From: a virus
Length of the DNA: 64,000 nt
Virus record (IMG/VR): IMGVR_UViG_3300025778_000016
Location: 6,562-70,561 of that record
Strand: one strand, 5' to 3'
Below are positions 31,101 through 57,590 of the stretch, piece by piece. Each line of letters begins with the position of its first letter. Within the stretch, counting starts at the first letter, position 1. The notes under the pieces were generated by a model. The model worked only from the letters and a program-made list of their open reading frames with translations. It ran no database searches and was not told where the DNA came from. A program made the translations under genes and the position numbers.

Positions 31101-34100
31101 CTAATTAGATATCCACCTAATAATTCATTATAAAGCACTGCCGCGCCAAAAGCTAAAGTTTCAGCGTGATTTATTTCTTGTTCATAATTGTAGTTTAATG
31201 TTTTTTGATATACTGCCCAACCACCATCTGTGTTTGTATCTACCCAAACAGTGTTTGGTTCAAATTCAAATGCTAATAAAGGCAAGTTAGCTATATCACC
31301 TGGAGTACTTACTCTTTGCGATGATAGCATCATGCCTACACCTATACCATTGATTGCTCTTGTTGTAGTGCTTAGTGATAATGAAATTGTTACTTGTGTT
31401 AAACTTACAACATTCAATACTGAATAATAACCATTTACATTAGTGTTAAAGTTTACAATAGCAAACAAATCATATTGTTGTAAATTATGTGGTGTGGCAA
31501 ATGTTACAACACATGTGCTGTTTAAATTGTTTTGTACATTAATAACTTGGTTAATTGCTATAGGCGTGTAGACATTCCATTTGTTTAGATAGTTTGCTAT
31601 CCATACATAATCACCTACATAAAAATTGCTTAATGGTACAAGTGTGCCTTGTTGATTAACTGCTGAACCTAATTGACTGTAAAAATATGAAACCATTTTT
31701 ACATCGTTATAGTTTACATAACCTGCGTCAGGTAATAAAACACTAGGAGCATATGGTATTGTTGGCAGTACGTTAACATCGTTTACTGGCTCACTAAAGT
31801 TGTAAAGTGAGTATAACGGAACTTCTTGTTCTACCCCTGGTATTGAAACTCCATCAGTTAACCCAACAATAAATGGATTTCCTGCTAACTGTGCTGCGTC
31901 TAACTTAAATTGAATAAAGTTGTTATTTAATACACCGCCATATTTTGATGTTTGAATAGCCCAGTTTTCGTATACGTTGTAATTAATTGAACCTTGTGGT
32001 AAGTTTGCCCCAACAAATGCGCTTACAGCATTTGTACTACCTTTTGTTTTAATTAAATTTTGATAGACATTAACTTGTGTTTCGTCAGTTAAATCAACTA
32101 ACGCAGCATAGTCTCTTGGTCTGTACCCAATCAAACTGTAACCTAATAGGTTAGCATCTGGATTTAAAGCAGTTGAATTAATATCATAGTATCGTGTGCT
32201 ATCTAAGCTGTTAGTACTGCTGTTTGGCAATAAACCATTTTGAATCTGTCCATAATTACTAATCATCCAATATTTTTGTTGGAAGGTTGCGCTTGGTTGA
32301 ACAATTTGTTGTGCGACCCAATATTGATTTTTGTAAAGAACGATTTCGCCTTTGGTATATCTTAATGAAGGATCCCACTGTTGTATGTTTGTCTGATTTA
32401 TGATAAAGCCTGAAGCATTATATGTGCCGTCCCAGTTAGCTGTTTTAGCACCTCTTACATAAATTCTGTTTTGTCTTATGCCAGTAATTAAATCATAAAT
32501 TGTATCATTAAACAATGTGTAATTATCAAACACTACAGCGTTTTCAAAATTGCTTAAATTAAATTGACCATAGCTAATTGTATCGCCTTTGTTTAATGCT
32601 GCTACTGTAAATTCTGTTCCATTACGAACAATGTTTAAATCTGAATTTTTAATTGGATATAAGTTTTGATTTAATACAAAGTTAATACCTTGTAAACTCA
32701 ATGGCTGTACAATTTGATTTTCTTTGTCAATAGTTAATTCATAAGCAGCAGGGTTAAGTGCTATAGTAGCACCTGCTGACCAACCAACTTGTGTCCAATA
32801 TAAATATTCCGCTATCATTTGTTGCCAGTCAACAACGACACTATCAACTTGATATTGATAGGCAGCGCCTTGACTGACTAAGTATGCGCCATAACTCGCT
32901 AAGAATTGTGCTACTTGATTAGTATTAATAAAAGTTGTTCCATATGGTACAACTTCGACTGTATCGCTATAATTTTTTGCTACTTTAACTGTTACGTTGT
33001 CTATAGTAATAAAGTTATATTGTCCATCATTCTTTGGTTTTAATACATTGAAATAAGCTGTTGTTTGACTGTTTCCATTAACACTATAGAAATATTGTGG
33101 TGTTAGTTGAACAAGCACACTACTGTATATAAGTTTTTCATATGGAGGATTGCTATATAGCAATACTTGATAGCTAGCATCAGGTATCAACAATGAACTG
33201 TTGTTGCTATTTGGATTTGTACTTTGTACATAGAAGTTTAATAAGTTTTGATCGCTATAACCAGCTAAACGATATACTAAACGTACATCAATGTTGTTTA
33301 GTAATTCAGTTAGTGTTGTTGTACCATCAATACCAAATTGTTTTTGATAGTCTACTATCCAGTTGATATAACTTGTAACTGGTGTGCCATTGCCATATAC
33401 AGGAATGTCAGTAATAATAAGATGACTTCTGTTGTTAACAAGATATTGATTAAATTCACTGTTGTATTTGTAGTCATCTACCCAAACACCTAAATTGAAA
33501 AATTCTGCTGGTTTAGTTAACGCCTGTATTCTCATTAAATCAAACGGCCAAGTGCTGCTGCGTCTGTAACTTAATTCTACAGGGCCAACATCTCCAACTT
33601 GCCAATTGTTTTCAAAACTACCCGAGTAGTAATTTCCTACAACGCTTACAAATGGGCTGACAAGATTACCTTGAGTGTCAACTGGCAATATAGTTGTAAG
33701 ACCTGGTCTTACAGCTTCAGGTATTATTCTGCTGTCGCCATTGTTATAATCAAATCCTATTTCAAGGTCTCCCCACAATACTAAGTTGTTACTTGTATAT
33801 GGAGCACTACCATAACGACTTGTCCACCAAGTTGGTTCGTTGCTATAACCTAACATTTCCCATGGAGTTGTGTTAGGAGTAAATGTGTCATAGAAATATT
33901 GATAGATACCTCTCCAGTAACCTATGCCTATTTGTGAATTATCTAACTTATTATTAGTTGTTCTATAGTTCCAACTTAATTCATCTGTTGAACTATAATA
34001 TTGAGTTTGATATGTTAATCTATTTTGACCAACCCAATTTAAGAATCCTTGTTGATAGATTTCGATAAATTCTTGGTAGCTATATTGATTATTTCTAAAG

Positions 34101-37100
34101 TAACCAGGCAAAATGTCATACAGTTGAACTGGAACTGTATTACTTAATTTTAAGTTGTTGTATATTCTTTTTTCAAATTCTAATAAAGCTTGGTCTCTAT
34201 AATCTACTAATGTGTCTGTTTCAACAATATAGTCGCCATATAGTTTATTATAACTGCCATCATGCCCTTTAATAAAATATGTTGGCTGACTATAATCGCT
34301 ATCTAATACAACTTCTGGAATAAATGCTGGATACAATCCAAGTTTTGTAGGTGTATTTGGTACAAAACTACCATAAGTTTGGTTGTACTCGTTAATTGTA
34401 ACTACATCGCCTGGCATCAATTCAATAACGATTTCTAAACTAGGAGCAGTAGAACTGACAATATAATCTACTCCACGTACTAATTGTTTTGTTGTTGTAA
34501 GATTATCTACTGTTCTAGCCAAGTATACAAGTACACCGTTATAGTTAGCTTGTGAAAAATCATAAACTTGACTTAAAGGATATACTGTAACTTGTAAATT
34601 GTTTTCAAAGGTATAAACATTTGAAGCATAAGGAGATTTTGCTGGTAGCATGTCGCTCCAGAAGAAACTTTGATTATTACTTTTTGTTGCTGTAATAATA
34701 TCCAATGCTGTGTTTAATACATATGCTGGATCATAACGTTGATCAAATGGATAATTGTTAACCGTAGCTACAATTAAATTTTTGTAGTTAATATATTGTT
34801 TGCTGTTGTATGACAATGAATCAAAAAGATTGAAATCTAAATTGCGTAAGAATGTTCCTGGCAATACTAAGCTTGCGCTGTTTTGAATGATAGCATTACC
34901 ATAAGGAACAATGTTTCCTAAGTTTCTATAGTTGTTATTGCCAAATACATCACCTGTAATGTAAGGACAATTATTAAAGATACTTACATATTGTCTTCTT
35001 ATATCGCCAACGTTGGCTGTTGTAATATTACCATTTAATGGGTTATTACTTAAGTTGATAGGTACTTGATAGTATGCTACGCTGCTTACATCATTGCTTA
35101 ATACTAAGACTTGAATTAAAGTATTTGTAATTTCTACAGGTACAGTTACTGTGACAGTTGTAATCGGTGTGCCATTAGCTAATGCCCCAAGTGTTACAGT
35201 ATAATTACTTGAATTTTGAATTACATTGTTTACATAAACTTGTAGTACAGGCCATGGACTGTCAGTTGAAGGTATTGGTTGTACATCTAATACAAATGTA
35301 GCTGTTGGGTTTGAATCACGATACCAGTTATATTCAAATATTTGATATTGTACACTTGGCCCTACTGCTGTTTGCCAGCCCAATAATCTTTCATAAGTTG
35401 TTAAATCAATATCATTATAAACATAACCTGTATTAACATTTACTGTAACAGGATTACTTTCGCTTACATAATTAAATGTATCGCTGTTGAATGAAATATC
35501 AAAACTAATATCACCTATATTGTCTACAGAACTATAACGTAGTGGAAATCCTAAAATAGGATCGTTTGTGCCTGTGCCAATACCGTAGGCTATTAATTTA
35601 CAGCCGGCAAAACTAGTTCCTAGATATACGTCACTGTTACCAAAACTAATACCATTGCTGTCAAATACATCAAACAATGGAGCTTGATTGTTATTTGTTT
35701 TTTCTTGTGATTGTGTCCAAACTAAACCATTATACCAATAACTATAACCCTGACTGTTATAACCTCTGAAAACAACTACTTGGTTGTTTGCTTCTATTGT
35801 GCCATCTGGTGCTTCAGATAATGTGATCACAGGGGGTTGTCCTGCTGTAATGACACTAAAGCTAGTTACAAATATTTTTGCGTTTTGTTCTGGGTCGTTG
35901 GCAAATACTATTCTTGCGCCAGGAAAAAGTTTGTAATTGTTATTATTTGCTGGGTTAGCAACAAGTGATAAGTTATTTGTTAAACTTATTGTTTTGTTAT
36001 AGTCATAGCCAATTCCAATTGTCAAAGTTGTACCATCATTAGCTAATGAAGTAATTTGACTGTTTGGTGGTAATATATTTTGACTATCATTGATATACAT
36101 ACCAACAGCAAATGTGCCACTTATATCATCTAACGGAACTGTTGCTGTTGTAAATAATGCGTTAGCTGTTCCAGTACCTGATGCTGTTGTAACAACATTA
36201 ACAATCATACCTGCTTGGTATGTTACTCCTGTAGTACCTGCTACTGTATTCCAATTAGTAGTACCTGTACTTGTAATAACATAGTTTTGTCCAACTACTA
36301 AACTACCACTATTAACATTTAGTGAACTTGCGTCAAGTGTAGCATTGTATGTTGTGTAAACATCAACGTCAGGATAATATACATATTGTCCAGCAACTTG
36401 ATTTAAACAGTCAGTTGTTCTAAAATCAATAAAGTCAATAGGATCTTTGCCTACTGTGCCACTGTTAAACAATCTTAGATTTGGGTAAAACTCAATAATA
36501 GGTCTTACTGCTTTAAACTGTTCATTAGCATATGTTGTTAAGATACTAGGATCATTGTTATACTGTGCTGTAGCTTGAATAACATCGATGTGGAACCAAC
36601 GATTACCTCTAGACCAAGCATTTCTATTAATTGCTTCTCTGGCAATAGTAATATAATCAGGGGTAACAGGAATATACAAACTATCGTCATAGTTAGCTGT
36701 GTCATAGTTTGTACTAGCGTATGGAGTTAAAATGTCGCCTGTGAATTTTTCTGGTACGACAAAATTTGTAACTGGTAATAATTCAATAGCAACACCAACA
36801 CCTTGTACATAATATTGACCAGTCAAATAACTAGAAGGAATAATATCTCCTACAAATTGTACTTTTAATCCATTTGTAAAGACTACACCATTGCTTGCTG
36901 TATAATTCTTTTTACCTAATATCTCTGTTTCAATATCAATTTGATTTGTAATATTAGCATCAGCAATTTTAATTACACCAACTTGATCAGGATTTGTACC
37001 GTCTTGATAGTATAGTGTTGTTAATGGAGCAGAAATGTATGGTATCATTTCAATATTGTTATATTGATCTAAGAAGAAATTTAATCCGCCGTATGTGTTA

Positions 37101-38491
37101 CCATATACTGCTGTAATTTTTTGATTTACTGGGATTTGTCCTGCTACGCTCAAGCTAATAATAGGATTGTTTGGATCTCCAATATATGTTATTTTGTAGA
37201 AATTTGAATTTACAACGCTATAGTATCCTTGTTCGTATTCCATAGCATTGATTTGACAATTCATAGTGCCAGTTGCGTTCTGCATTGCTACAACTGGGCC
37301 ACCAATTACTAAACTAATTGTAAATTCTGTGGCACTAACAATTTCACTGACATAATATAATACAGCTTGTGTGATATTACCTTGACTATCAGTAAGTGAA
37401 GGAATAATTGTACCAATTGGTGTACCTGTAAAAGCAACTGTTTGATTTACAAACATTCCTGTTGTACTATTACATGTAATTACATTGCCTGTGCTTGATG
37501 TACTTGTAATTGTAATATTTTGAGGTGCTGTGATATCATTATCGTTTTCAGCATATGGAGTATAATCTAAAAAGTTTGATGTATATCCCTGCTCATTTGG
37601 TACTCCAGTATCATAAAACATTACTGTTAAGCCATTAAGACTTGTTACACCATCAATATTTTGTAATGACGATAAGGGTTTACCATTTAAATTTTCATAT
37701 GAAACGTTACTGACAACACTTACTAGATTGTTACCAGGGAAATTGTATCCATTTTGTGCGTCGGCAGGAGGAACAGTAAATGTTACTACTCCTGATTCAG
37801 CGCCATTGTTGTTAACACCTAAAATTTGTCTTACACTTTGATTTGGATTGTTTGCGCTTTTGCCAGAAACTCCTGGTTCGCCCTGAATCCAAAATTGTGT
37901 ATTTTGATTTACAATAAATTCATAGACACCATCTCTTAGTAATGTAATAGTAGGATTAATACTACCGCCTAGTGCTCCTGCTAAAGCAATTTGATAGCCA
38001 CTTGGTTCTGGTGTCACTACAAATGTTTCTGTGCTATAAACAGTTCCTGCGCCAACTGTTACAGCTGGAGGACCTACATCTAACCAGTAATATTGATTAT
38101 AGTTTATCAATGAGTCAAGGTTAATAAAACTATCCCAAGAATAGAATTGACCATTGAATAATCTATTATTATTGTCTGCTATACCCCCATTTTGATTTAC
38201 AGCATCAATAATACCAGGATAACTTATAAAATCTTTGGCTGTACTTGTATTTGGTTGAGTAAAAACAATACCTGGGTCAAGTTGATAGTTTGTTCTTGTT
38301 CTATCAGGTTCTGTTACATAATAATCATTAGCGTTAACACCGTATCCAAAACGATTGCCTACGTAGCCTTGTATTTGTTCTAAATTAGGTGGATTTACTA
38401 ATTGATCGAGAGTAGCACCTAAAAACTGTTGGTTAGTAGTTGTTTGAAATATCTCTGGTAAAAAATCTAAAGTTCTAATTAATGGTGCCAT
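19139..38491 (-). CDS. giant (~6,450 aa) baseplate wedge/fibre-like structural protein (positional gp7 analogue)
   Basis: Uninterrupted 19.4-kb ORF directly after the gp6-like gene, with repeated beta domains, FG-GAP-like and STDGxxW propeller repeats. Start moved from TTG 38497 to ATG 38491 because the TTG abuts the promoter motif. Confidence 0.8.
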   Translation of the reverse strand: MAPLIRTLDFLPEIFQTTTNQQFLGATLDQLVNPPNLEQIQGYVGNRFGYGVNANDYYVTEPDRTRTNYQLDPGIVFTQPNTSTAKDFISYPGIIDAVNQNGGIADNNNRLFNGQFYSWDSFINLDSLINYNQYYWLDVGPPAVTVGAGTVYSTETFVVTPEPSGYQIALAGALGGSINPTITLLRDGVYEFIVNQNTQFWIQGEPGVSGKSANNPNQSVRQILGVNNNGAESGVVTFTVPPADAQNGYNFPGNNLVSVVSNVSYENLNGKPLSSLQNIDGVTSLNGLTVMFYDTGVPNEQGYTSNFLDYTPYAENDNDITAPQNITITSTSSTGNVITCNSTTGMFVNQTVAFTGTPIGTIIPSLTDSQGNITQAVLYYVSEIVSATEFTISLVIGGPVVAMQNATGTMNCQINAMEYEQGYYSVVNSNFYKITYIGDPNNPIISLSVAGQIPVNQKITAVYGNTYGGLNFFLDQYNNIEMIPYISAPLTTLYYQDGTNPDQVGVIKIADANITNQIDIETEILGKKNYTASNGVVFTNGLKVQFVGDIIPSSYLTGQYYVQGVGVAIELLPVTNFVVPEKFTGDILTPYASTNYDTANYDDSLYIPVTPDYITIAREAINRNAWSRGNRWFHIDVIQATAQYNNDPSILTTYANEQFKAVRPIIEFYPNLRLFNSGTVGKDPIDFIDFRTTDCLNQVAGQYVYYPDVDVYTTYNATLDASSLNVNSGSLVVGQNYVITSTGTTNWNTVAGTTGVTYQAGMIVNVVTTASGTGTANALFTTATVPLDDISGTFAVGMYINDSQNILPPNSQITSLANDGTTLTIGIGYDYNKTISLTNNLSLVANPANNNNYKLFPGARIVFANDPEQNAKIFVTSFSVITAGQPPVITLSEAPDGTIEANNQVVVFRGYNSQGYSYWYNGLVWTQSQEKTNNNQAPLFDVFDSNGISFGNSDVYLGTSFAGCKLIAYGIGTGTNDPILGFPLRYSSVDNIGDISFDISFNSDTFNYVSESNPVTVNVNTGYVYNDIDLTTYERLLGWQTAVGPSVQYQIFEYNWYRDSNPTATFVLDVQPIPSTDSPWPVLQVYVNNVIQNSSNYTVTLGALANGTPITTVTVTVPVEITNTLIQVLVLSNDVSSVAYYQVPINLSNNPLNGNITTANVGDIRRQYVSIFNNCPYITGDVFGNNNYRNLGNIVPYGNAIIQNSASLVLPGTFLRNLDFNLFDSLSYNSKQYINYKNLIVATVNNYPFDQRYDPAYVLNTALDIITATKSNNQSFFWSDMLPAKSPYASNVYTFENNLQVTVYPLSQVYDFSQANYNGVLVYLARTVDNLTTTKQLVRGVDYIVSSTAPSLEIVIELMPGDVVTINEYNQTYGSFVPNTPTKLGLYPAFIPEVVLDSDYSQPTYFIKGHDGSYNKLYGDYIVETDTLVDYRDQALLEFEKRIYNNLKLSNTVPVQLYDILPGYFRNNQYSYQEFIEIYQQGFLNWVGQNRLTYQTQYYSSTDELSWNYRTTNNKLDNSQIGIGYWRGIYQYFYDTFTPNTTPWEMLGYSNEPTWWTSRYGSAPYTSNNLVLWGDLEIGFDYNNGDSRIIPEAVRPGLTTILPVDTQGNLVSPFVSVVGNYYSGSFENNWQVGDVGPVELSYRRSSTWPFDLMRIQALTKPAEFFNLGVWVDDYKYNSEFNQYLVNNRSHLIITDIPVYGNGTPVTSYINWIVDYQKQFGIDGTTTLTELLNNIDVRLVYRLAGYSDQNLLNFYVQSTNPNSNNSSLLIPDASYQVLLYSNPPYEKLIYSSVLVQLTPQYFYSVNGNSQTTAYFNVLKPKNDGQYNFITIDNVTVKVAKNYSDTVEVVPYGTTFINTNQVAQFLASYGAYLVSQGAAYQYQVDSVVVDWQQMIAEYLYWTQVGWSAGATIALNPAAYELTIDKENQIVQPLSLQGINFVLNQNLYPIKNSDLNIVRNGTEFTVAALNKGDTISYGQFNLSNFENAVVFDNYTLFNDTIYDLITGIRQNRIYVRGAKTANWDGTYNASGFIINQTNIQQWDPSLRYTKGEIVLYKNQYWVAQQIVQPSATFQQKYWMISNYGQIQNGLLPNSSTNSLDSTRYYDINSTALNPDANLLGYSLIGYRPRDYAALVDLTDETQVNVYQNLIKTKGSTNAVSAFVGANLPQGSINYNVYENWAIQTSKYGGVLNNNFIQFKLDAAQLAGNPFIVGLTDGVSIPGVEQEVPLYSLYNFSEPVNDVNVLPTIPYAPSVLLPDAGYVNYNDVKMVSYFYSQLGSAVNQQGTLVPLSNFYVGDYVWIANYLNKWNVYTPIAINQVINVQNNLNSTCVVTFATPHNLQQYDLFAIVNFNTNVNGYYSVLNVVSLTQVTISLSLSTTTRAINGIGVGMMLSSQRVSTPGDIANLPLLAFEFEPNTVWVDTNTDGGWAVYQKTLNYNYEQEINHAETLAFGAAVLYNELLGGYLISDNKLGEVYRYDYNVITTNYDIFQTLTGSDVSYGTSMVNEGLTYVISQPTGTPKIYIYTLNNSILSDYLTETQEIAAPGGATVFGNSLALSNDTNWLYVGDSADNKVYVYRKQNIPLQAGYFVAGETYIITSVGTTNFKTICATPITNTVGTIFVATGAGSGTGTATQISYKYSTVIDGSLFSSSGDKFGNSIATDYYGDTVVIGAPGVEYVPSTISNWGSSYVYQRSVQNFVAQFTNIDIISKFNLAWTPTHVDRTANAVSSGTIIQCNADMTGFSVNQPVMFTAFTTPTVAGSFVVGVTYTIDSVGTTDFTAIGAGSNNVGVVFTATGVGSGTGTALASVNFGNSGVVPYVVYYINSISGSNITIKTSRSSTTPVSLTNATGLYFNVNVQTDPLYVSVNGNLVDDSNYAVAGSTLIYTGQLTAGDIVNVSDNVFTKVQSLTTESTPEVGVQFGNSVDTTAYGTEIIVGAPFELTTQLVEGAVYRFTNSGGRFGTITGTSAVNLTQQRTILINGFEAVLPVGDAASAAQAIIQANIINVTASASNNILTISIINNDLAQANEKLLISTLDSAALTELGITPYTLTQTILCPHEDGATQFGTTVKFNEYGSFVASAPVGTRYEDTTFDNIQYPDNDTIFDNNTTQFIDTFPNAGAVYMFDYLEDFNETINNVGNFVYAQSVNANDLVYGNQPMYGTALDFVGNRVVIGSSKFAGIPNNFNDSFTLGYGQVVTYVNTVGTQDWSVLRQTSPIVDINRIGYTQIFNSQNNQTLLHLDYFDPLQGKLFGIVAENIDVVSQIDPASYNNGNVTQQSVVWGKEKVGNIWFNTSNVRFVNYHQNDVTYNSAYWGTVFPGSDVAVYSWIESAVPPSSYQGPGIPYNTNLFSIETILNSSQEATVVYYFWVRNSSIIFENIGKTLSDNTIATYIAYPFYSGISYLAPVLPSVFSVYNSQQLLNGNTSVLNIGYSTGKTDDEYHSEYALIKQNYYEDFLPGLPTLETPEPTLLYRRFLYSLSGVDGLGQVVPDPFLPLAVQTGISARPRQSFFLDRFIALQNYILFANSTLAQYPIAETRENATFLFASGEFYNTQDYWTYVNWWAPGYDDSVRANVVVSIYADLSTLTVADKTIAKVQKNGKGLNEWYIYSSATDSWIRIGLQNGTIQFSSSLYDYASAGYGWAGNFYGTSSYDNYPSEETYWIIRALNEQIYTSELLIYRNQSLILMFEYIQSEATSSQNYLTWLNKTSLVDVSHNIRNLLPLENYQSDNQDFLSKYLTEALPFHVFIKNFTYVYTGNELYAGTLTDFDLPAGYNSTIEQFVSPELVYENPDNTTTYLPTAEIWQEQQYNDWFENYGVSLTGQTDVTITTLKAYISLGSSFIVVYNASGFPINGVITIGTEQIAYGHVDRATNVLSQLIRGYNQTTVQTHLPGSDIIIDLPAVLLLNGSRGYQNPPRVLAYIDTSIYPAPKEAAVLEAVMSLDTVVGVNVINPGRGYAVLPEIIFDTAVTVPFSSNNVNILNNTIQIYAPQFQTGDLIKYLSDPNGVNVGGLQNNQWYYLNVLETVPAIIVALYENYADCVNDTNRINILSTGTGNNHTLNLTARASAVSTAVPVRENIVTLKYDRTTYNTKVTDWKADAFYGSFFAGDLLNVEQVSSSDLSLQNSQPPISSILASAHGAGFEIVSVGNNQQVEWSSSVRYVYATVSATNSVSLKLDSGNLENASGSTIGMTVDMPVQFAGSVGNSGLSVGIVYYVKEILSLTDFTISATVGGPTLSLNNQIISVAGCSMFVAQVVNTATLTVNYPGIRQVTSTTANGYVNRGYFTIPLNSTGTGGTTGFYIGLPVFFVGDVFGGVIENVTYYVHTILDKQNFTLSQTTDLTTFGVVSASSSTKYVTLETTVGLSVNEPFVINDAIINGTASSTFGNISSSTIYYVSQIINSTQITISTQYNGNVFDPGNVSANDETSATLTSQSDTLLLSSATGSMTINLSLPVSPGQVQNQLFTLYQTSKQYAGITSGVISNQLSGNINAILTTTNYVSVNSTNHMYVNMPFTVGSGFNGLSAGLYYVSTIGNISVTVTNTSSTGNLLTCSNTDVLYPGMPIIFTGVSLGTVVIGQQYFVFTITDSQHFTISYTPIKTVKITGSNTSQFTCDSTLNLAPETPITFVADVTGGVTKNTEYYVKTIVDLTHFTISATPGGSALTLTSSSPTYPMIGFIDYSESVLQNDNGLMIGTGTPYITLETGNPLSTTPTPVTISHTEFGPVTYEQTPVSTPSFSVSYVIGGYNAIIESAGQGFAIDNIITISGTTITPDGLSPANDITLRVNNIDSYGAILSVQVSGTPPSDTSNQYYMRVTGTNTFEVYSNPLLTAPVSGLPDVFPYVGFTTTTATATSSSTITVASTSGFNVYDPVVFTGTIFNSNIVLGQTYYIASITPSTSITISNTVGGSAISLGTSSGSMTMAKAGSYAFLPEPFYFQQSVVRFNGQVYICIVSNNDKEFIYGKWQLLDSGSRELNALDRIIGYYQPTVNMPGYGYYQDRAIQLGIPVIDMSQLLTGTIYPYSTYFGNYFQPSLELPVDVELQDKPFYPSQINLAGIIYNGVTYVSPANTSQGAALATNTSDDIWNVTSLTTSNSDITSINFVNNKYLLTTGNSATPILRSVDGITWSSLGYYTSGTTTTLNLAGLTLQDSAYGNGVYVAVGSSIITSTDATNWNQTFTFNNNLTEMLYGVTYVTLNGFTGFVAVGIGQRFDYSTGFTEIVPTDIVLTSTNGSSWNVVPSFAYHGFYSVTANNNTLVAVGQNGAIYTSANGTNWNGINETNIVGVNTNTNVINVGNTSGFTVGETVRFTQSFDVISSSTTYYIKNIVNGTQVQVSLTSGGSAVTLNGTNPTVGLALMYAYPYTTDLTNVNYINGHFVAVGNTGLIKTSTDGITWASQTSGTTQNLTGSTYHSGTYTVVGYDNTVIQSNNLSTWTQTGIFETPSAIYNVTGAPFDFGYGPEELVAGVVSDNLSMIVNTRPGTNWDPTEYAHTGFGVTSIQLTPTTALQTVYSFASAEVQVPSTIAVYVISGSTGLCTKIYNYTVNYINQTVTLSSPLTFGSVTDSLRIDVYEVGNGYQLVKSSTQYNPIVINSNGFETIHTPANYAGEISSGNGVIRPGTQPIEVDALATSSSTNSITVTGISNFTLNKPISFQGTVFGNIVEGTTYYVKSISTITSSITISDTIDNSTGIAGATFALADDIGDMTCIIAGSTGVYWTSPIVYHNGTKLVAGQLNFVSTTISSTNSIVCASVSQLVSGTPVTFDKNIFGGITPLQTYYVKTVNPTNNSFTISATNGGSTFTLSNATGSSSFVTYDYAIGLAKDSLTSDIIFSGNYGSSDYISYTLFGQTTPVQYGYTMPETQIFTGNGSTTVFNLSNYIDTDSSVNAIVEVQGLRVDPSTYTISPAYNNITFNSAPSGTIAVTTYNLTDYQYLHTQSGITNNTVANIVFVNNNVMSVAGTTRITTGIAHNLSTNDIVRLDGIIGSSQLNNNTYYVHVIDSNNFDIYTSSYTMSGVNSPVVGVSTYQSGGYAWIDGTYIISDTTATASTVQGEITVSSTNGLQIGTPVYFTTPQGSLGQTVLGAITTGTEYYVNDIVDSTHFYVSTSRYGTNLTLGSTSGQTVNVTQWQQTNVDRLYVTINGYRVPSSSLRVNPGNYISILSTIQQSDSVTITSMVPSATPNMMRYYLNVNRYGVPTVYNANSSTTWLILPVGDLDSTIYVKDVTQLTQTIVQNVVAPSKTNNIIEIPLNVDKRTLSSLTVYNNNTASYLPTSDYYVQLIDLYPYVFITNGVNVGDNLTITALEGNTVYVNGEQIKFTSINGPVQAGYIVKGQTYTIDYIGTTDFTRIGASSNTVGVTFVANDGISSNPNGTQIGTGTGTAVSQNTLCGIQRGANGTAQQTYIPVNTPVLGLLQRNLLPEIYYNQTWNPIPGVYNVTEGDPLQIADTTPATFLQSD

Positions 38492-38497
38492 TTCCAA

Positions 38498-50566: not shown

Positions 50567-50595
50567 TTGACATTATCTAATGTATAGTGTAATAT
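50567..50595 (+). promoter_or_regulatory. sigma70-type promoter for the gp55-gp47-gp46 operon
   Basis: Perfect -35 TTGACA (50567-72), 17-nt spacer and -10 TAATAT (50590-95). SD AAGGAAG precedes the ATG at 50619. Confidence 0.75.
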
Positions 50596-50618: not shown

Positions 50619-51509
50619 ATGACAGTCGCAAAAAAACCAGTCAATTATTTAAACAATAAAGACATTTTGAAAGAAATTCACGCAAGCAAAACAAGTTATT
50701 GCTGTTATACCAAACAAGAATATCATCAATATGACTTAATTATAGATACACCTGACAGTAGTTTAGAAAATTCGGTAAAACATATAATAAAACCTAGTAA
50801 AATTAAAGAAGCCAAAGAAAACCGTGCTGCCAGATTATCAATTGGGTTAGAAGAAAAATTAACACATAAAGACATACCCACAACTGATTTAGTATTTCGT
50901 GTAATGACTTGGGATCATATCCCAGTTAGTGCTAAACAACCAAAGAAAGTTGTTAAAAAGAAAACTGCTAAAGATATTTTAGAATTTATTGACGATGAAG
51001 AAAATGAATTTGACGATTTAGAAGATACCACTACTAAAGATGAAGTAGATGACATGGTACATGTCAAAGTAAACTTTCCACCCTTTCAACACTTTAAGAT
51101 TGATGAAAATGGCGATCCCTACTGTGTGGGCAAGAGTCATTGGAAAGGTGGGGTCAAAACTGGCGAATTTAGTAAAACTCATGGACAGATTACAGACAAA
51201 CTAGCAAGAATGTATATGATGCTATGTGAAAAGTATGCTATGAAGTTTAACTGGCGCGGTTACACATATAATGACGAAATGCGTGGTAGCGCAATATTAC
51301 AATTAACATATGTTGGGTTACGATTTAATGAGGCAAAAAGTGCCAACCCATTCGCATATTACACAGCAGCTATTACAAATAGTTTCTGTAGAGTATTGAA
51401 TACCGAAAAACGTAATCAAAACATTCGTGACGATATTCTAGAAATGAATAATTTAACACCAAGTTTTACACGACAAATGCAGGGAATGAAGTTCGATAGC
51501 GAAGAATAA
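50619..51509 (+). CDS. gp55: late-transcription sigma factor, T4 gp55-like
   Basis: NYLNNKDIL, NWRGYTYNDEM and NPFAYYTAAITNSF. Canonical gp55-gp47-gp46 order. Confidence 0.9.
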   Translation: MTVAKKPVNYLNNKDILKEIHASKTSYCCYTKQEYHQYDLIIDTPDSSLENSVKHIIKPSKIKEAKENRAARLSIGLEEKLTHKDIPTTDLVFRVMTWDHIPVSAKQPKKVVKKKTAKDILEFIDDEENEFDDLEDTTTKDEVDDMVHVKVNFPPFQHFKIDENGDPYCVGKSHWKGGVKTGEFSKTHGQITDKLARMYMMLCEKYAMKFNWRGYTYNDEMRGSAILQLTYVGLRFNEAKSANPFAYYTAAITNSFCRVLNTEKRNQNIRDDILEMNNLTPSFTRQMQGMKFDSEE

Positions 51510-51510
51510 T

Positions 51511-52524
51511 ATGAATTTATTTAAAAAAGCAGCCGTATTTACGGATATACATTTTGGTTTGAAAAGCAATAGTATACAACACAATGTTGATTGTAGTAAC
51601 TTTGTTGACTGGTTTATAGAAAAAGCTAAAAGTGAAGGGTGTGAAACCTGTTTCTTTTTAGGTGATTATAACCATCATCGTGCTAGTATCAACATTGCGA
51701 CATTGCAATATGGCTTACGTGCGCTGGAAAAACTAAATGAAAATTTTAGCCAGGTTTATTTCATTCCAGGCAATCATGATCTATACTATAGAGACAAACG
51801 CGACATTCACAGCGTTGAGTGGGCTAAACATTTACCTAATGTAACAATTGTAAATGATTGGCATAGTGAGGGCGATGTAGTTATTGCTCCTTGGTTAGTT
51901 GGAGAAGATTATAAGAAATTAAAGCGTCTTGAGGGAAAATACTTGTTTGGTCACTTTGAGTTGCCATACTTTTATATGAACGCAATGGTTGAAATGCCAG
52001 ATCATGGTGAAATCAACGTAGATCATATGAAAAATTTTGAACAAGTATTTTCAGGACACTTTCATAAAAGACAACATAAAAACAATGTTTGGTACATTGG
52101 CAATAGTTTTCCACACAACTATGCTGATGCTGGAGATGATCAAAGAGGTATGATGATACTAGCGTGGGGACAGGAACCAATATTTCATAGCTGGCCTAAT
52201 CAACCAGTGTTTAGAGTTTACAAGTTAAGTGAAGTATTAGAGAATCCATCGGGCTATCTACTGCCCCATTCTAGTGTCAGAATACATTTAGATATTGATA
52301 TCAGTTATGAAGAAGCCAATTTCTTAAGAGAAGAACTAATTCCAAAACATAATTTACGTGAAATGATATTAATGCCAATTAAATCTGAATTACACGCAAT
52401 TGATCTTGCCCCAGGCGAGTTGAAGTTTGAAAGCGTAGATAAGATAATAATTGATCAAATCAGTAACATAGAAAGCAATTCATATGAACCTAAGTTACTG
52501 TTAGAAATTTATAATAATCTATGA
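51511..52524 (+). CDS. gp47: recombination endonuclease subunit (Mre11/SbcD-like)
   Basis: Metallophosphoesterase motifs DIH, GD, GNHD and GHFH. Confidence 0.95.
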   Translation: MNLFKKAAVFTDIHFGLKSNSIQHNVDCSNFVDWFIEKAKSEGCETCFFLGDYNHHRASINIATLQYGLRALEKLNENFSQVYFIPGNHDLYYRDKRDIHSVEWAKHLPNVTIVNDWHSEGDVVIAPWLVGEDYKKLKRLEGKYLFGHFELPYFYMNAMVEMPDHGEINVDHMKNFEQVFSGHFHKRQHKNNVWYIGNSFPHNYADAGDDQRGMMILAWGQEPIFHSWPNQPVFRVYKLSEVLENPSGYLLPHSSVRIHLDIDISYEEANFLREELIPKHNLREMILMPIKSELHAIDLAPGELKFESVDKIIIDQISNIESNSYEPKLLLEIYNNL

Positions 52525-52742
52525 AAACAAGACAATATAGGGATTTAGAGTCGTTGATAAAAATCAATAAACATTTAGGTATTGCGTTAAATGAAATAAC
52601 AAAAGTGCATCCTTATGTTGGTAGTTTAAGAGAACAGAGAACACTTATTAGCGCCAAATTAAAAATAGAAGGAATAATTGAAAGAACATTAAAGGCTGAA
52701 AATTTAGCCAAAAGTGATTTTTTCAGAACACTAGAACAATGA
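52521..52742 (+). CDS. hypothetical protein inserted between gp47 and gp46
   Basis: ATGA overlaps on both sides. Confidence 0.7.
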   Translation: MKTRQYRDLESLIKINKHLGIALNEITKVHPYVGSLREQRTLISAKLKIEGIIERTLKAENLAKSDFFRTLEQ

Positions 52743-54496
52743 TTATACTAAAAAATATTACATTAAGAAATTTCCTTTCAATAGGAAATGTTACACAAGC
52801 AGTAAACTTTGATACTAAAGAACTAACACTTATTCTAGGTGAAAACTTAGACTTAGGTGGTGATGGCGCAAGAAACGGTACAGGTAAGACAACTCTTATT
52901 CAAGGGTTGAGTTATGTGTTGTTTGGAACTCCAATCAATAACATTCGTAAAGATAATTTAATCAATCGTACCAATGGTAAGGGTATGATGGTGACACTTG
53001 AGTTTAGTTGTAATGGTATTGAATATAAGATTGAACGTGGTCGTAAACCAAACATATTAAAATTTTATATTAACGATACAGTACAAAGCAATGATGCTCA
53101 GGGTGAGAATAGAGAAACACAAGAGCAAATTGAAAAAGCAATTGGTATGACACCTGATATGTTTAAGCACATTGTTGCGCTTAATACATATAGTGAACCA
53201 TTTCTAGCAATGAGTGCTAATGATCAGCGTAATGTTATTGAACAATTATTGGGAATTACATTATTAAGTGAAAAAGCCGATTTGCTTAAAAACTTAATTA
53301 AAGATGTAAAAGATAGTATTCAACAAGAAGAATTTAGAATACAAGGTGTTGAAGAAGCCAACAAACGTGTTAAAGAACAAATCGAAAGTACCAAACGCAG
53401 AAGTGCGTTATGGCAAAAGAAACATGCTGAAGATTTGGCTAAACTTGCTTTGGCTTATGATGATTTAACAAAAATTGATATTGATGTTGAACTTCAAGCA
53501 CATAAAGATTTAACTCTTTACAATGAAAAACAAAAGAAAATTAATGATTTAAATAAATTAATTACTCGTTTGGAAAGTGACCAAACAAAAGAAAACAAAA
53601 CTGTTAAAAAACTTTCTAAAGAAATTGAAGATTTAAAAAATCATACATGTTATGCTTGTGGACAAGAGTTCCATGATGAAAATCATAATACTGTTTTGTC
53701 CGATAAAGAAAAAGCATTAGAAGAGGCACTAGCACAATGTGAATCTATTGTGTCTCAAATAACTGAACATCAGTCTGAATTAAACAATTTGGGTGAGTTA
53801 GGTATTATACCAAAAACACATTATGACACTGAAGCTGAGGCTGTAATGCATAGCAGTCAGATCAGTAATATATTAAAACAAATTGATAGTAAAAGTGAAG
53901 AAACTGATCCATATATTGAACAAATCAGTGAAATGGAAAGTCAAGCACTTCAAGTTGTAAGTTTTGACAAGATAAATGAATATACAAAATTAATGGATCA
54001 TCAAAAGTTCTTGTTAGACTTATTAGTAAGTAAAGATAGCTTTGTTCGTAAAAAGATCATTGATCAAAACTTAAGTTATTTAAACGCAAGACTCACACAC
54101 TATCTTGATAGAATTGGATTACCACATCAAGTAGTATTTCAAAATGATTTAAGTGTTGAAATTACAGAATTGGGCCGTGAACTTGACTTTGATAATTTAA
54201 GTCGCGGTGAACGCAACAGATTAATTCTAGGTTTAAGTTTTGCTTTCCGTGATGTATGGGAAAATTTATACTTCCCAATCAATACATTGTTTATTGACGA
54301 ACTTATTGACAGTGGATTAGACACACTTGGTGTTGAAAACAGCATGGCTATCTTAAAAGAAATGAGTCGTAGACGCAGTAAGAGTATTTGGTTAGTCAGT
54401 CACAGAGAAGAACTAGCAGGTCGTGTGCCTAGTGTATTAAAGGTTGTTAAAGAAAATGGATTCACAACCTATAATAGTAGTCATGAGGTACTATGA
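52739..54496 (+). CDS. gp46: recombination ATPase subunit (Rad50/SbcC-like)
   Basis: Walker A NGTGKTT, zinc hook CYAC within the coiled coil, signature LSRGE, Walker B LFIDE and H-loop VSH. Confidence 0.95.
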   Translation: MIILKNITLRNFLSIGNVTQAVNFDTKELTLILGENLDLGGDGARNGTGKTTLIQGLSYVLFGTPINNIRKDNLINRTNGKGMMVTLEFSCNGIEYKIERGRKPNILKFYINDTVQSNDAQGENRETQEQIEKAIGMTPDMFKHIVALNTYSEPFLAMSANDQRNVIEQLLGITLLSEKADLLKNLIKDVKDSIQQEEFRIQGVEEANKRVKEQIESTKRRSALWQKKHAEDLAKLALAYDDLTKIDIDVELQAHKDLTLYNEKQKKINDLNKLITRLESDQTKENKTVKKLSKEIEDLKNHTCYACGQEFHDENHNTVLSDKEKALEEALAQCESIVSQITEHQSELNNLGELGIIPKTHYDTEAEAVMHSSQISNILKQIDSKSEETDPYIEQISEMESQALQVVSFDKINEYTKLMDHQKFLLDLLVSKDSFVRKKIIDQNLSYLNARLTHYLDRIGLPHQVVFQNDLSVEITELGRELDFDNLSRGERNRLILGLSFAFRDVWENLYFPINTLFIDELIDSGLDTLGVENSMAILKEMSRRRSKSIWLVSHREELAGRVPSVLKVVKENGFTTYNSSHEVL

Positions 54497-55506
54497 GTCT
54501 AGCGCTTTGGCATTGGCATATTGAGATAAGCAGTAAATGTACATTGCGTTGTCCAAGATGCGCACGAAGTGAAGTGCCTGAAAGTTTAGTCAACACAGAA
54601 TTAGGTCTTGATTTTTTTATAAAAAACTTTGATGAAAGTTTTATTAAAAATCATGTAGAAAAACTTACATTCTGTGGTGACGATGGTGACCCCATATACG
54701 CACATGATTTTTTAAGTGTGTTAAAGTATTTTAAAAATATTAAGCCGAACATCAGCATTGTTATAGTGACTAATGGCGGATATAAATCAAATGATTTTTG
54801 GAATGAATGTAGCAACATATTAAATGAATATGATACAATTCATTTTAGTTTAGATGGCTGGGATAATGCCAGTAATAATTTATATAGAGTTAATAGTAAC
54901 TTTGATAGTTCAATCAATGGTGCTAAAATATTAATTGAAAGTAATAAATGTTATGTAGTTTGGGACGCAATTGGATTTAAATTTAATGAAAACAAACTAC
55001 GTCACATGAAACAACTAGCAAAGTCATATGGTTTTGATATGTTTCAATTAACTAAAAGTACAAAATTTGGTGCCATATATGAACACTATGGCAAAAATGA
55101 TACATTACAACCAAGTAAAAAATTAATGAGTAGTAGTCATAGATTTGAAAGAGAATACACATATTTCACTGAAAGACGACCTAATGAAAGTTTTATGACT
55201 ACTAACTTGTCACACTATGATAGTGTAGAAAATATAGGAAATATTAAACCTTTATGTCATATTGGCAATAAAGGATTGTTTATTAACAGCAAGGGAGAGT
55301 TTTTCCCCTGTTGCTGGGTAGCTAATAGATATGGTCACAATAATAAATTTGTTGACTTAAGCAAAAGCTACAACTTACACAACGTAACTTTACAAAGTGT
55401 ATTAGATTTAGATTTTTATAAAAAAAATTTTGTTAATGATAGTTTTGAATGTAATATTAAATGTAACAAAGATATTGTTACAAAAAATTATGGTACAGAG
55501 TGGTAG
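54493..55506 (+). CDS. radical SAM enzyme with C-terminal SPASM/twitch domain
   Basis: CTLRCPRC, GDDGDP, VTNG, and C-terminal PLC...PCC...ECNIKC. Confidence 0.9.
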   Translation: MSLALWHWHIEISSKCTLRCPRCARSEVPESLVNTELGLDFFIKNFDESFIKNHVEKLTFCGDDGDPIYAHDFLSVLKYFKNIKPNISIVIVTNGGYKSNDFWNECSNILNEYDTIHFSLDGWDNASNNLYRVNSNFDSSINGAKILIESNKCYVVWDAIGFKFNENKLRHMKQLAKSYGFDMFQLTKSTKFGAIYEHYGKNDTLQPSKKLMSSSHRFEREYTYFTERRPNESFMTTNLSHYDSVENIGNIKPLCHIGNKGLFINSKGEFFPCCWVANRYGHNNKFVDLSKSYNLHNVTLQSVLDLDFYKKNFVNDSFECNIKCNKDIVTKNYGTEW

Positions 55507-55520
55507 GAATATATAAAGCT

Positions 55521-56087
55521 ATGCCAAGTCCACAAAAAGCAAAAGGTTCAGGTTTTGAAAGAGAAGTCGCAAGATTTCTATCAGACTTATACAATGAATC
55601 ATTTATACGCGCCCCAGGTAGTGGCGCATATGTGGGTGGCAAAAACAAAGCTCGTACACAAATATTACATGAAGGACAAATTCGTAGTTTTAAGGGAGAT
55701 ATTGTTCCAGGACAAAGTTTTCCTAAACTAAACGCTGAATGTAAAAGTTATGCTGATTTCCCATTTCATTTAGTTTTATCTGGAGAATGTAAAGTTCTTG
55801 ACGGTTGGCTAGATCAAATGATGGACGTAGCAGAAGATAATGATCTTAATGTGCTTTTTATGAAATTTAATCGTAAGGGGCGCTTTGTTGTAGTTCAGAC
55901 TAAGTATACATGGGTCACAGACCATTTCTTGTATTACACTAGTGCTAAACACAAAGATTGGATCATTATCGAATTTGATCACTTTTTTAAGTTTAATAAA
56001 GAAATATTTGCGGCATACTCAGGCTCATCAGACACCAAATCAAACTCTCACACTTTACCTCTTAATTCAACTCAACAATTAGTTTAA
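55521..56087 (+). CDS. Holliday junction resolvase-like PD-(D/E)XK nuclease
   Basis: KAKGSGFEREVA...GDIV...AECK (Hjc-type E...D...ExK). ATG 55521 is preferred over the GTG at 55500. Confidence 0.8.
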   Translation: MPSPQKAKGSGFEREVARFLSDLYNESFIRAPGSGAYVGGKNKARTQILHEGQIRSFKGDIVPGQSFPKLNAECKSYADFPFHLVLSGECKVLDGWLDQMMDVAEDNDLNVLFMKFNRKGRFVVVQTKYTWVTDHFLYYTSAKHKDWIIIEFDHFFKFNKEIFAAYSGSSDTKSNSHTLPLNSTQQLV

Positions 56088-56456
56088 TCGGGGTTGCCCG
56101 ATTCTCCTTGAGCAAGCCTGGGAAGCCAGTCGCCTGCGGATTCTGGAGTAAGCATGGCATTTTTTTAAATGTCGTGGAACACCGAGGTGGCACTCGACTG
56201 AGATTGCGAACCACCAACAAGTCTGTAACTACTATGTATTGATGTTACAGAATGTGCGTTGCTGAACACTAGCCCAAAGCTAGCAGATTCACTACAGACC
56301 CATAATACTTTACAGAGCAACCGGTGGCGAATAGCAGCAACAATAGCTGGCTAGTCGGGGTATATACATCAAAGGATGACGGGCAGGCAAGTTATTTTTT
56401 TGGTAGTGCTGTTTAGCACTACCATGGCTTCTAAGCGGCAAGTGGTATGCATACCA
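56086..56456 (+). ncRNA. candidate large structured non-coding RNA (family not recognised)
   Basis: No ORF of 60 aa or more, about 46% GC by manual count in an AT-rich genome, and more than 10 mutually compatible helices including three long-range ones. G-U pairs favour the + strand. Confidence 0.75.
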
Positions 56457-56500
56457 AGTAAAGTTTTTAAATTTATAATAGATTAAGTTACTGTAAAAGA

Positions 56501-56543
56501 TAAGACCGAACGAAGTGAGGGCTTAGACAAACGAAGTTTGTCT
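56501..56543 (+). other. tandem hairpins with AC-GAA-GT triloops (origin/priming signal or terminator)
   Basis: TAAGACCGAAC-GAA-GTGAGGGCTTA (tandem G.A mismatches) and the perfect AGACAAAC-GAA-GTTTGTCT, followed by Ts. Confidence 0.6.
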
Positions 56544-56544
56544 T

Positions 56545-56775
56545 TTAAAAGAAAGGCATTTGTGTTTTCTTAGTTGTTTCCAAATTACTTTCTATCAATT
56601 CATTTAAGGCATTTCTCTCATCACTGGACATATTCAAGATATCGGTATATGTAGCTCCACCTCTCATATACCAAGCCATGGTTAGGCAGTTCTTTTTAAT
56701 GTCCTTGACTTCATTCTCATATCCATCAAAAAGCTTCTTAATAGCGTCGGGTTTTAAATTAAGAAGCCTTAAACG
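56545..56775 (-). CDS. 76-aa -1-frame extension of the gp26-like gene (tail-assembly-chaperone GT/gp51-like domain), absent from the ORF track
   Basis: Open frame RLRLLNLKPDAIKKLFDGYENEVKDIKKNCLTMAWYMRGGATYTDILNMSSDERNALNELIESNLETTKKTQMPFF. No ATG until residue 33; it begins exactly at a slippery site. Confidence 0.8.
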   Translation of the reverse strand, partial: RLRLLNLKPDAIKKLFDGYENEVKDIKKNCLTMAWYMRGGATYTDILNMSSDERNALNELIESNLETTKKTQMPFF

Positions 56776-56781
56776 AAAAAA
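56730..56781 (-). promoter_or_regulatory. programmed -1 ribosomal frameshift signal
   Basis: In-frame U UUU UUC heptamer (56781-56775), 4-nt spacer and 13-bp stem AAGGCUUCUUAAU/AUUAAGAAGCUUU (56770-56730). Confidence 0.8.
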
Positions 56782-57590
56782 TCGGAAATGTTCAGTGTGA
56801 ATTTAGTTTGGTATGGATGCTGACAATTAACACAGGTAACGTCTAATGGTTTTAGTTCGCCTTCTTCACGAATTGAAGCATTTTGCTCACGTACTGCGTT
56901 ATATGTATTTTTATCACAATTCAATAAAAATTCTTTGATAAAAGTCTTTTCTTTTACAATACCGACTGGTGTTTTAATATAATCAATGGCATCAGTTAAT
57001 ATTTTGATAGTTAATTCTGTTATTTTTTCCAATGCTGTTTTATTTTTTTGAAGTCTAACTTCATCGCTATCACTTTCTACATAGGCTGTAGAAGTTGAAA
57101 CATCAAATTGGAACAGACTAATATCAGTCATTTCTTTAAATGTAAATGGTCTAAATTTAAAATACAATTCCCCGACATTGTATTCTTTGTCATAATTTCC
57201 TGATTTTAAATTCAATAACAATCCAGTTAGGTTTACGTTATATTTGCCACTTTCTTCACATTTTGGGCAAACACTTTCAATTTCAAAGTTTTCCCCAGTG
57301 CTTGCTGCTTTAATGGCTATAAGTATAGCATCTAAGTCCATGCTATTAATTTTCCATGGATCTAACATATTTGGTATACAACTCTTAACGATTTCTACTA
57401 CCGCAGTTCCATTAAACAATGCGTCTGGAGTTCGTGCTGTAATTTCATCAATAGCTGTCATTGGATAAACAGGTAAATCGCCTGTTTCTGTGTTGTTCAG
57501 TACAGATTTATCATAGTATAAACCTTGACTAGGCAGTTTAACATATAATGCTGGTCTGCGAAAATATTGTTTAAGTGGGTTATCGGTCAT
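56769..57590 (-). CDS. baseplate hub assembly protein/tail chaperone, T4 gp26-like
   Basis: VKLPSQG, PMTAIDE, DLDAILIAIKAASTGE, CPKC and CVNC zinc motifs, and the DFF terminus typical of gp26-like proteins. Confidence 0.8.
   Translation of the reverse strand: MTDNPLKQYFRRPALYVKLPSQGLYYDKSVLNNTETGDLPVYPMTAIDEITARTPDALFNGTAVVEIVKSCIPNMLDPWKINSMDLDAILIAIKAASTGENFEIESVCPKCEESGKYNVNLTGLLLNLKSGNYDKEYNVGELYFKFRPFTFKEMTDISLFQFDVSTSTAYVESDSDEVRLQKNKTALEKITELTIKILTDAIDYIKTPVGIVKEKTFIKEFLLNCDKNTYNAVREQNASIREEGELKPLDVTCVNCQHPYQTKFTLNISDFFV

Follow-up and report, generated by a model that had tools for sequence, protein, structure and literature searches.

A very probable new family of structured non-coding RNA in uncultured aquatic jumbo phages

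New classes of large pseudoknotted RNA are rare; each of the known ones (group I and group II introns, RNase P, GOLLD, ROOL, OLE, and raiA) has led to new biochemistry or structural biology. Among these, GOLLD and ROOL are about 580-800 nt in size and are sited next to tRNA genes. In this study, we examined a 64,000-nt stretch (hereafter the window; positions 6,562 to 70,561) of the IMG/VR record IMGVR_UViG_3300025778_000016, a 70.5-kb record from an uncultured phage for which CheckV estimates 20% completeness. Positions 56087-56441 on its + strand are very probably the gene for a structured non-coding RNA of about 350 nt, whose family is absent from current catalogues. Like GOLLD and ROOL, this RNA is large, G+C-rich relative to its surroundings, multi-helix, pseudoknotted, and phage-borne, with variable expansions at hairpin tips. 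However, the Rfam models of GOLLD and ROOL did not match it, its size is only about 350 nt, and no tRNA genes were present in the window.

Two other systems invite comparison. The RNA resembles phi29 pRNA in being a folded RNA encoded by a phage, and its strongly sequence-conserved module could dock on a partner; in contrast, it shows no Rfam homology, it belongs to another phage group, and neither a partner nor oligomerisation loops were identified for it. The omega-RNAs and reRNAs of TnpB and IscB are of similar size, contain pseudoknots, and likewise lie directly 3' of a nuclease gene, touching its stop codon. The neighbour here is, however, a PD-(D/E)XK nuclease, its adjacency to the RNA is lost in four divergent loci, and neither transposon ends nor a guide-like variable end was seen.

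The element stands out in the window by both coding content and composition, as a first-pass annotation made from the letters of the window had stated. The longest stretch without an open reading frame (ORF) of at least 60 aa in any frame was 56088-56768 (681 nt), the second longest being 132 nt. The G+C content of 56086-56456 was 47.4% versus 34.8% window-wide, which was the maximum among all 371-nt segments (top 0.02%). The element was also correctly placed at the stop codon of the upstream nuclease gene: the TAA occupies 56085-56087 and the first paired base of the RNA is 56087, so that the stop codon touches the first hairpin. Furthermore, any given reading frame ran uninterrupted through the core in at most 7 of 123 sequences.

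With the nuclease protein as the query, 80 IMG/VR loci (designated by L numbers) were obtained at 71-86% amino-acid identity. In 79 of them, blastn placed the RNA immediately after the nuclease gene, with 67-78% nucleotide identity over the aligned parts; the 80th locus, L044, stops 123 bases past the nuclease gene. The exact pattern of the 3' hairpin gave at least 120 further stretches from viruses and at least 119 from metagenomes, and it gave no match in 185,579 bacterial and archaeal species genomes (one per species), a search that divergent copies would escape. A scan with a core pattern returned mostly chance matches. Among 62 new loci without the hairpin pattern, 17 scored with R1, a model of the central core of the RNA, and the 45 core-pattern loci without an R1 score were excluded. 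The RNA was single-copy in each of two complete RNA-bearing genomes (525 and 367 kb), and lake metagenomes, with some marine ones, carry it widely: 24 DNA sequencing runs matching the window were labelled freshwater or lake, and TARA or marine appears in the names of two metagenome records. The nearest cultured phages, judged by the nuclease and by the T4 gp26-type baseplate hub protein encoded beyond the RNA, were jumbo myophages at 32-42% identity (Atu_ph07, Phosso, SCTP-2, PA5oct, and the 121Q/PBECO4 group). Taken together, these sequences suggest that the RNA is a conserved feature of hundreds of uncultured aquatic jumbo myophages, which form a large clade with T4-type core genes.

Neither the window RNA nor the divergent copy of L175 had a blastn match among GenBank phages. 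At E <= 0.1, R1 had no match anywhere in three cultured-phage genomes, those of Sinorhizobium phage Phosso, Agrobacterium phage Atu_ph07, and Salicola phage SCTP-2, and it had none better than E = 0.12 in their stretches syntenic to the window. Within the window, there was no second copy of the 3' hairpin and no second site complementary to the 3' tail. In Phosso, the syntenic stretch contains 1 kb without annotated genes between the resolvase and RNase HI genes (L202 5760-6773, record positions 229759-230772), which showed no R1 match, no Rfam match, and no GC excess.

Two MAFFT alignments, not fitted to structure, were used to examine covariation: A1 with 55 unique sequences, and A2 with 65 core sequences that are pairwise less than 90% identical. 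RNAalifold predicted 65 pairs on A1, of which 37 had compensatory changes. A scan of all column pairs in a 124-sequence alignment recovered the helices and uncovered two tertiary pairings (PK1 and PK2). On A2, a model of 52 pairs was paired in 96.2% of 3356 cells, whereas shuffled partners reached 79.3% (0/500 attaining the observed value) and partners slid by 1-3 columns reached 31-40%; double changes were found in 43 of the 52 pairs. The whole-RNA model of 87 pairs was 94.4% paired on A1. The covariation is unusually clean, tertiary pairings included. In addition, G-U cells outnumbered A-C cells (113 vs 29), and the + strand is therefore favoured. These results bear out the earlier proposal of an ornate phage RNA on the + strand, including its expectation of conservation in homologous loci. 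The elements of the RNA, all on the + strand, are as follows.

56087-56102, + strand: Ha, the 5' hairpin, 6 bp in the window; double changes in 6/6 pairs
56104-56148, + strand: S1, a helix of CUCC (56104-107) with GGAG (56145-148) around Hb, from comparative analysis
56108-111 and 56138-144, + strand: conserved internal loop within S1, UUGA / GGAUUCU
56112-56137, + strand: Hb, a hairpin inside S1; double changes in 7/9 pairs, 82% of cells paired
56153-56176, + strand: Hc, a hairpin of variable length; double changes in 9/9 pairs, 90% of cells paired
56180-56326, + strand: four-way junction core, from the comparison of the 65 sequences of A2
56180-184/56322-326, + strand: J, the helix closing the junction; 98.2% of cells paired
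56186-215, + strand: Hd arm; 100% and 99.5% of cells paired
56217-255, + strand: He arm; 99.7% of cells paired
56258-263/56316-321, + strand: Hf arm; 96.7% of cells paired
56264-290, + strand: Hg, a variable hairpin borne by Hf; segment length 14-184 nt
56291-315, + strand: conserved 25-nt single strand borne by Hf, CUACAG..CCC..ACUUUACAG
56298-56301, + strand: 5' strand of PK1 (ACCC) in the Hf internal loop; partner 56358-56361 (GGGU)
56328-56357, + strand: Hh, a hairpin between the junction and the pseudoknot strands; double changes in 9/11 pairs, 95.5% paired
56358-56369, + strand: 3' strands of PK1 (GGGU, 56358-361) and PK2 (UACAU, 56365-369)
56401-56424, + strand: Hi, a 10-bp hairpin of nearly invariant sequence, from A1
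56425-56441, + strand: conserved 3' tail, AUGGCUUCNAAGCGGCAAK; blastn matches end at query positions 356-363

The predicted layout shown by this comparison consists of a 5' three-way-junction domain (Ha, S1/Hb, and Hc), a central four-way junction (J, Hd, He, and Hf/Hg), and a 3' module made of the near-invariant 10-bp hairpin and the conserved tail. Two pseudoknots, shown by covariation at the level of predicted pairing, lock the four-way junction and connect the loop of He and the internal loop of Hf with the strand just 3' of Hh. PK1 had double changes in 4/4 pairs and 93.5% of cells paired, and PK2, in which the He loop (56234-238) pairs with 56365-369, had double changes in 5/5 pairs and 98.8% of cells paired (65 sequences each). 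J, Hd, He, and Hf had double changes at most pairs in the same set. Ha formed a hairpin of at least 5 bp in 121 of 124 unique family sequences, with 73 distinct sequences. S1 was invariant in A1 and appeared elsewhere as CUCU/AGAG, CCCC/GGGG, or CUUC/GAAG. The CCUCCUU motif resembles an anti-Shine-Dalgarno sequence; since it pairs with GGAG and S1 varies on both sides together, this likeness is incidental and mimicry was rejected.

Length changes in the family were restricted to the tips of Hc and Hg. The Hc segment ranged from 18 to 169 nt, with insertions of up to about 150 nt in relatives. Hairpin-rich insertions of about 50-150 nt were seen in L139 (in Hg) and in L052 and L253 (both in Hc), and these are natural expansion segments. 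Position 56326 covaried both with its J partner 56180 (90% standard pairs) and with 56309 (98%: UA 80, CG 22, UG 18). Positions 56383 and 56435 switched jointly from G/G to U/U, which may be a single lineage event.

The helices drawn in the first-pass annotation were partly retained. Among its four long-range helices, CACCG/CGGTG (96% paired) and GTTGCT/AGCAAC (98%) held, whereas GAAGCCA/TGGCTTC (45%) and GCCTGC/GCAGGC (51%) did not. For the last, the duplex energy of cognate strands (-6.28 kcal/mol) hardly differed from that of non-cognate (-5.95) or shuffled (-5.75) strands; a short GCC/GGC contact is possible, and the GCCTGC 5' strand rather lengthens hairpin Hb, where covariation is partial. 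Of the eight local hairpins, six were recovered (56087-102, 56153-176, 56186-215, 56222-251, 56328-357, and 56401-424). That at 56367-378 was discarded since it overlaps the covarying PK2 strand (56365-369), and a hairpin at 56445-456 lies outside the conserved part, which ends near 56441. Of two suggested coaxial abutments, 321/322 is real, and 424/425 falls because it needs the unsupported GAAGCCA/TGGCTTC helix. Similarly, the pseudoknot candidate ACCC/GGGT is a true pseudoknot (PK1), whereas CTCC/GGAG is the nested helix S1.

Comparison with catalogued RNA families agreed with the earlier statement that the element is unlike tmRNA, RNase P RNA, and group I/II introns. No Rfam 15 family matched the window at the gathering score. 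At E <= 10 (55900-56700) and at E <= 5 (10 relatives), only scattered chance-level matches were obtained, none recurring, and the same was true of the three cultured-phage stretches at the gathering score. The GOLLD, ROOL, OLE, HEARO, and raiA models gave no match at any of these three settings for the window, region, and relatives. ARAGORN found no tmRNA or tRNA in the window, and tmRNA was rejected on this result together with the lack of an Rfam tmRNA match. RNase P RNA was rejected with no Rfam match and with GAAGCCA/TGGCTTC, the sole candidate for an end-joining helix, paired in only 45% of cells. Five RNA-bearing records contained no RVT_1, TROVE (Ro60), or RtcB; a retron- or DRT-type template RNA was rejected on the absence of RVT_1 from these five records, two of them complete. 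Literature searches, including one with the hairpin sequence and one preprint searched by terms, did not turn up the RNA; supplements and about 1.7 million PMC articles lay outside the reach of this search, so a listing in a supplement is possible. Annotation pipelines leave such RNA genes blank.

The group I intron was rejected on two grounds. First, the RNA is flanked on one side by a complete nuclease gene, at its stop codon, and on the other by predicted terminators facing convergent genes, with no downstream + strand ORF. Second, there is 0 nt for J8/7 between Hh (ending at 56357) and the PK1 3' strand (starting at 56358), and RF00028 did not match. Group I introns have the strand order P3/P7/P8. 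J and PK1 interleave with Hh between their 3' strands in this same order, all three covarying, and two stacked arms (Hd and He) are inserted after the 5' strand; this likeness is a resemblance only. The differences are that the RNA here has no exons, host gene, or J8/7, that the PK1 5' strand lies inside an additional helix (Hf), and that a second pseudoknot is present.

The 3' module is the most constrained part of the RNA. In the 55 sequences selected through the neighbouring protein, the Hi stem had no double changes: 6 of its 10 pairs were constant, 2 varied on one side (G-U), and 2 departed in 1-2 sequences. Variants from the core-pattern search remained paired, with two double changes in L238, one in L253, and a U-A to G-U change in L226. 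The most divergent copies retained Hi though every other helix was altered, and they also retained AUGGC of the tail. Conservation ceased near 56441 (blastn matches ended at 56441-56448). From these sequences, Hi is a true helix under unusual sequence constraint, and the constraint points to partner recognition or a dense tertiary role.

The transcription context was examined next to the RNA and its flanking genes.

50567-50595, + strand: sigma-70-like promoter, TTGACA, 17 nt, TAATAT; 10/12 consensus matches
55521-56087, + strand: PD-(D/E)XK (PDDEXK_15) resolvase-like nuclease gene; Pfam PF24608, E 6e-24
56502-56524, + strand: T1, a hairpin with an A-rich run before it, from folding
56525-56543, + strand: T2, a hairpin followed by a U run (56544-547), from folding
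56769-57590, - strand: T4 gp26-type baseplate hub gene, converging on the RNA region

The + strand operon 50619-56087 follows the sigma-70-like site and ends in the RNA. No promoter-like site was found directly upstream of the RNA on the + strand, and the promoter at 50567-50595 presumably drives it. The gp26 gene has a T4-type late TATAAATA. T1 and T2 abut about 60 nt downstream of the conserved tail, and relatives keep both with compensating stems at the same place in L003-L195. The T1 loop is conserved at 11-12 nt (GAACGAAGUGA or GAGCGAUAGCGA), and the T2 loop is of CGAAG type. T1 is read as a probable - strand terminator because an A-rich run precedes it, and T2 as a probable + strand terminator, likely the 3' end of the primary transcript, because a U run follows it; with just 2 G-C pairs, T2 was not called by a consensus terminator scan. 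The pair look like back-to-back terminators of convergent early and late units.

Based on these observations, we tentatively favour, at somewhat below an even chance, a trans-acting scaffold, ribonucleoprotein (RNP), or decoy RNA that uses the near-invariant 3' hairpin and tail. In such a mechanism, an early sigma-70-type operon with genes for recombination and repair would yield the RNA as its final portion, and the transcript would end at the conserved back-to-back terminator pair. The RNA would probably be released by processing and then act in trans as a folded RNA, in which the pseudoknotted core would display the 3' hairpin and tail to a partner, either protein or nucleic acid, from phage or host. 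It would be neither a guide of the neighbouring nuclease nor a cis regulator. Cis-independence is supported by the + strand, which holds no downstream gene for the RNA to regulate. The role of the 3' module is supported by the near-invariance of Hi in sequences chosen without reference to Hi. Independence of the nuclease is supported by three divergent cases described below, namely the SegE gene of L195, the double copy of record G001, and the context of L287. Such an RNA gives a handle on how giant phages use RNA in early infection, and its size of about 350 nt, its secondary-structure model, and its natural variation make it suited to structure determination.

Several points weigh against the scaffold proposal. 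Its partner is hypothetical, and the RNA ends, processing, and expression are predictions; a search of sequencing runs gave 0 RNA runs with the window sequence, a count that has no bearing on expression. The near-invariance of Hi could stem from tertiary contacts or catalysis instead of a bound partner, and rare Hi variants do show compensatory changes. Most loci keep the RNA right after the nuclease gene, which leaves room for a functional link in trans, and the records without a nuclease gene are only 17-30% complete. Finally, single-sequence folding of the + strand gave z = -1.72, with 3 of 100 shuffles equally good, compared with z = -3.15 for the - strand. The folding energy had been named at the outset as a check; since that of the + strand is not clearly better than shuffles, the case for the RNA rests on covariation and not on folding energy.

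A bolder proposal, which we regard as rather doubtful, is that the RNA founds a new large-RNA class of aquatic jumbo phages, either a non-splicing ribozyme with a group-I-like double-pseudoknot core or a higher-order particle like those of ROOL and GOLLD, made early and needed by the whole phage clade. The main rival of the scaffold reading is that of a new natural ribozyme, in which the pseudoknotted four-way-junction core would be catalytic, for example in self-processing from the operon transcript or in acting on another RNA. We consider it unlikely, although it has several points in its favour: at least 11 helices and 2 pseudoknots, many invariant unpaired nucleotides in the junctions and the Hf internal loop, an order (J 5', PK1 5', J 3', hairpin, PK1 3') that equals P3/P7/P8 of group I, and an RNA that must be separated from an operon transcript of about 5.9 kb. 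However, no Rfam 15 ribozyme matched the window or 10 family members, there is no host gene or exons, and the 0 nt between Hh and the PK1 3' strand leaves no J8/7-like segment. Moreover, the most conserved part is a plain hairpin and not a junction, and the activity is hypothetical.

A cis-acting or ligand-sensing 3' element, such as a riboswitch-like sensor governing termination or the antisense read-through that enters the convergent late genes, or a stabiliser of the mRNA 3' end, is improbable. The RNA does sit between the last + strand gene and the predicted back-to-back terminators facing late - strand genes, and a four-way junction plus a pseudoknot, as found here, is common among riboswitch aptamers. 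On the + strand, however, no further gene follows the RNA, the next genes lying on the opposite strand, which also led to the rejection of a riboswitch or 5' UTR leader. The second copy of G001 and the L287 copy are in other contexts and strand arrangements, and about 60 nt of non-conserved spacer precedes the terminators, so that no expression platform is visible.

The first-pass annotation had also suggested an RNA partner of the adjacent PD-(D/E)XK nuclease, and a partner or guide encoded 3' like the omega-RNAs of TnpB and IscB is now very unlikely. The arrangement in which the RNA directly follows the nuclease gene, with gp26 then on the other strand, is the usual one, being present in 79/80 protein-selected and nearly all motif-selected loci. 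Nevertheless, adjacency is lost in four divergent loci (L195, L206, L175/L207, and L287), in two of which free-standing genes of homing-endonuclease type take the place of the nuclease gene.

L195 2656-3096, - strand: SegE GIY-YIG gene, directly upstream of the RNA
L206 2816-3256, - strand: homing-endonuclease-type gene with marginal NUMOD3 (20.3 bits, cut-off 20.4), directly upstream of the RNA

In L195, the SegE-type GIY-YIG homing endonuclease gene (E 7e-33) replaces the PD-(D/E)XK gene. Record G001 carries two diverged RNA copies, scoring 123 and 106 bits with R1: one, close to gp26, follows a gene whose NUMOD3 motif is marginal, and the other lies between a tail-fibre-like gene and an unrelated gene. 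The L287 copy is a relative of the second G001 copy in yet another context. No nuclease homologue was found on the examined 60-103 kb of the L195, G001, and L287 records, which are 17-30% complete. Furthermore, Phosso, SCTP-2, and Atu_ph07 have nuclease or gp26 homologues with no R1 match genome-wide. An obligate-partner or guide relation is unlikely from these sequences because adjacency is lost in L195, G001, and L287 and because R1 is unmatched in the three cultured phages. The variable segments are the Hc tip, the Hg tip, and the linker 56370-56400, and none is a terminal guide given the predicted RNA ends. Cultured jumbo-phage homologues of the PDDEXK_15 nuclease carry the annotation Holliday junction resolvase, and a junction resolvase needs no guide. 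A TnpB/IscB omega-RNA in the strict sense was rejected, the neighbour being PDDEXK_15 and not RuvC and the linkage being lost in the same four loci.

Seg and Mob proteins are free-standing homing endonucleases, and by analogy such genes beside the RNA would fit a highly conserved target sequence. Small-protein pairs with repeated 'G..HRE(D/N)GPA' motifs adjoin divergent RNA copies in L206 (473-1170, - strand) and L287 (2484-3164, oriented). These proteins look MORN-like by eye, the two of L206 have no Pfam match, and the contexts are unrelated, so the association is possibly chance.

A replication-origin transcript, that is, a folded R-loop primer like ColE1 RNA II or the T4 oriF/oriG transcripts, is just as improbable as a nuclease partner. 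Its position alone is suggestive: the RNA has homologues of the recombination genes gp46/gp47 on one side and the gp26 baseplate gene on the other, and T4 ori(uvsY) adjoins genes 25 and 26; an AT-rich spacer also follows the RNA. However, this spacer is not conserved, two covarying pseudoknots with a four-way junction exceed the known needs of R-loop priming, one phage record has two copies at different places, and nothing specific speaks in favour. Lastly, a known family that was missed (a divergent group I intron, RNase P RNA, or tmRNA) can practically be dismissed: the RNA is about as long as RNase P RNA and the Rfam group I model misses phage introns, but the searches of the 801-nt region (E <= 10) and the 10 relatives (E <= 5) and ARAGORN were negative, no conserved helix joins both ends, exons are lacking, and the hairpin motif did not occur in the 185,579 bacterial and archaeal species genomes.

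The + strand genes leading up to the RNA encode an Mre11-like phosphoesterase, a Rad50/gp46-like ATPase, a radical-SAM/SPASM protein, and the PDDEXK_15 nuclease. The radical-SAM/SPASM gene (54493-55506), between the gp46-like and nuclease genes, was found by tblastn in a minority of related loci and is therefore, as far as these loci indicate, an accessory insertion in the module. Downstream of gp26, a 44-aa ORF (56545-56679, - strand) has no Pfam match, and its C-terminal coding part is conserved across related loci. Elsewhere in the window, a single ORF of 6452 aa (19139-38497, - strand) adjoins other large - strand ORFs.

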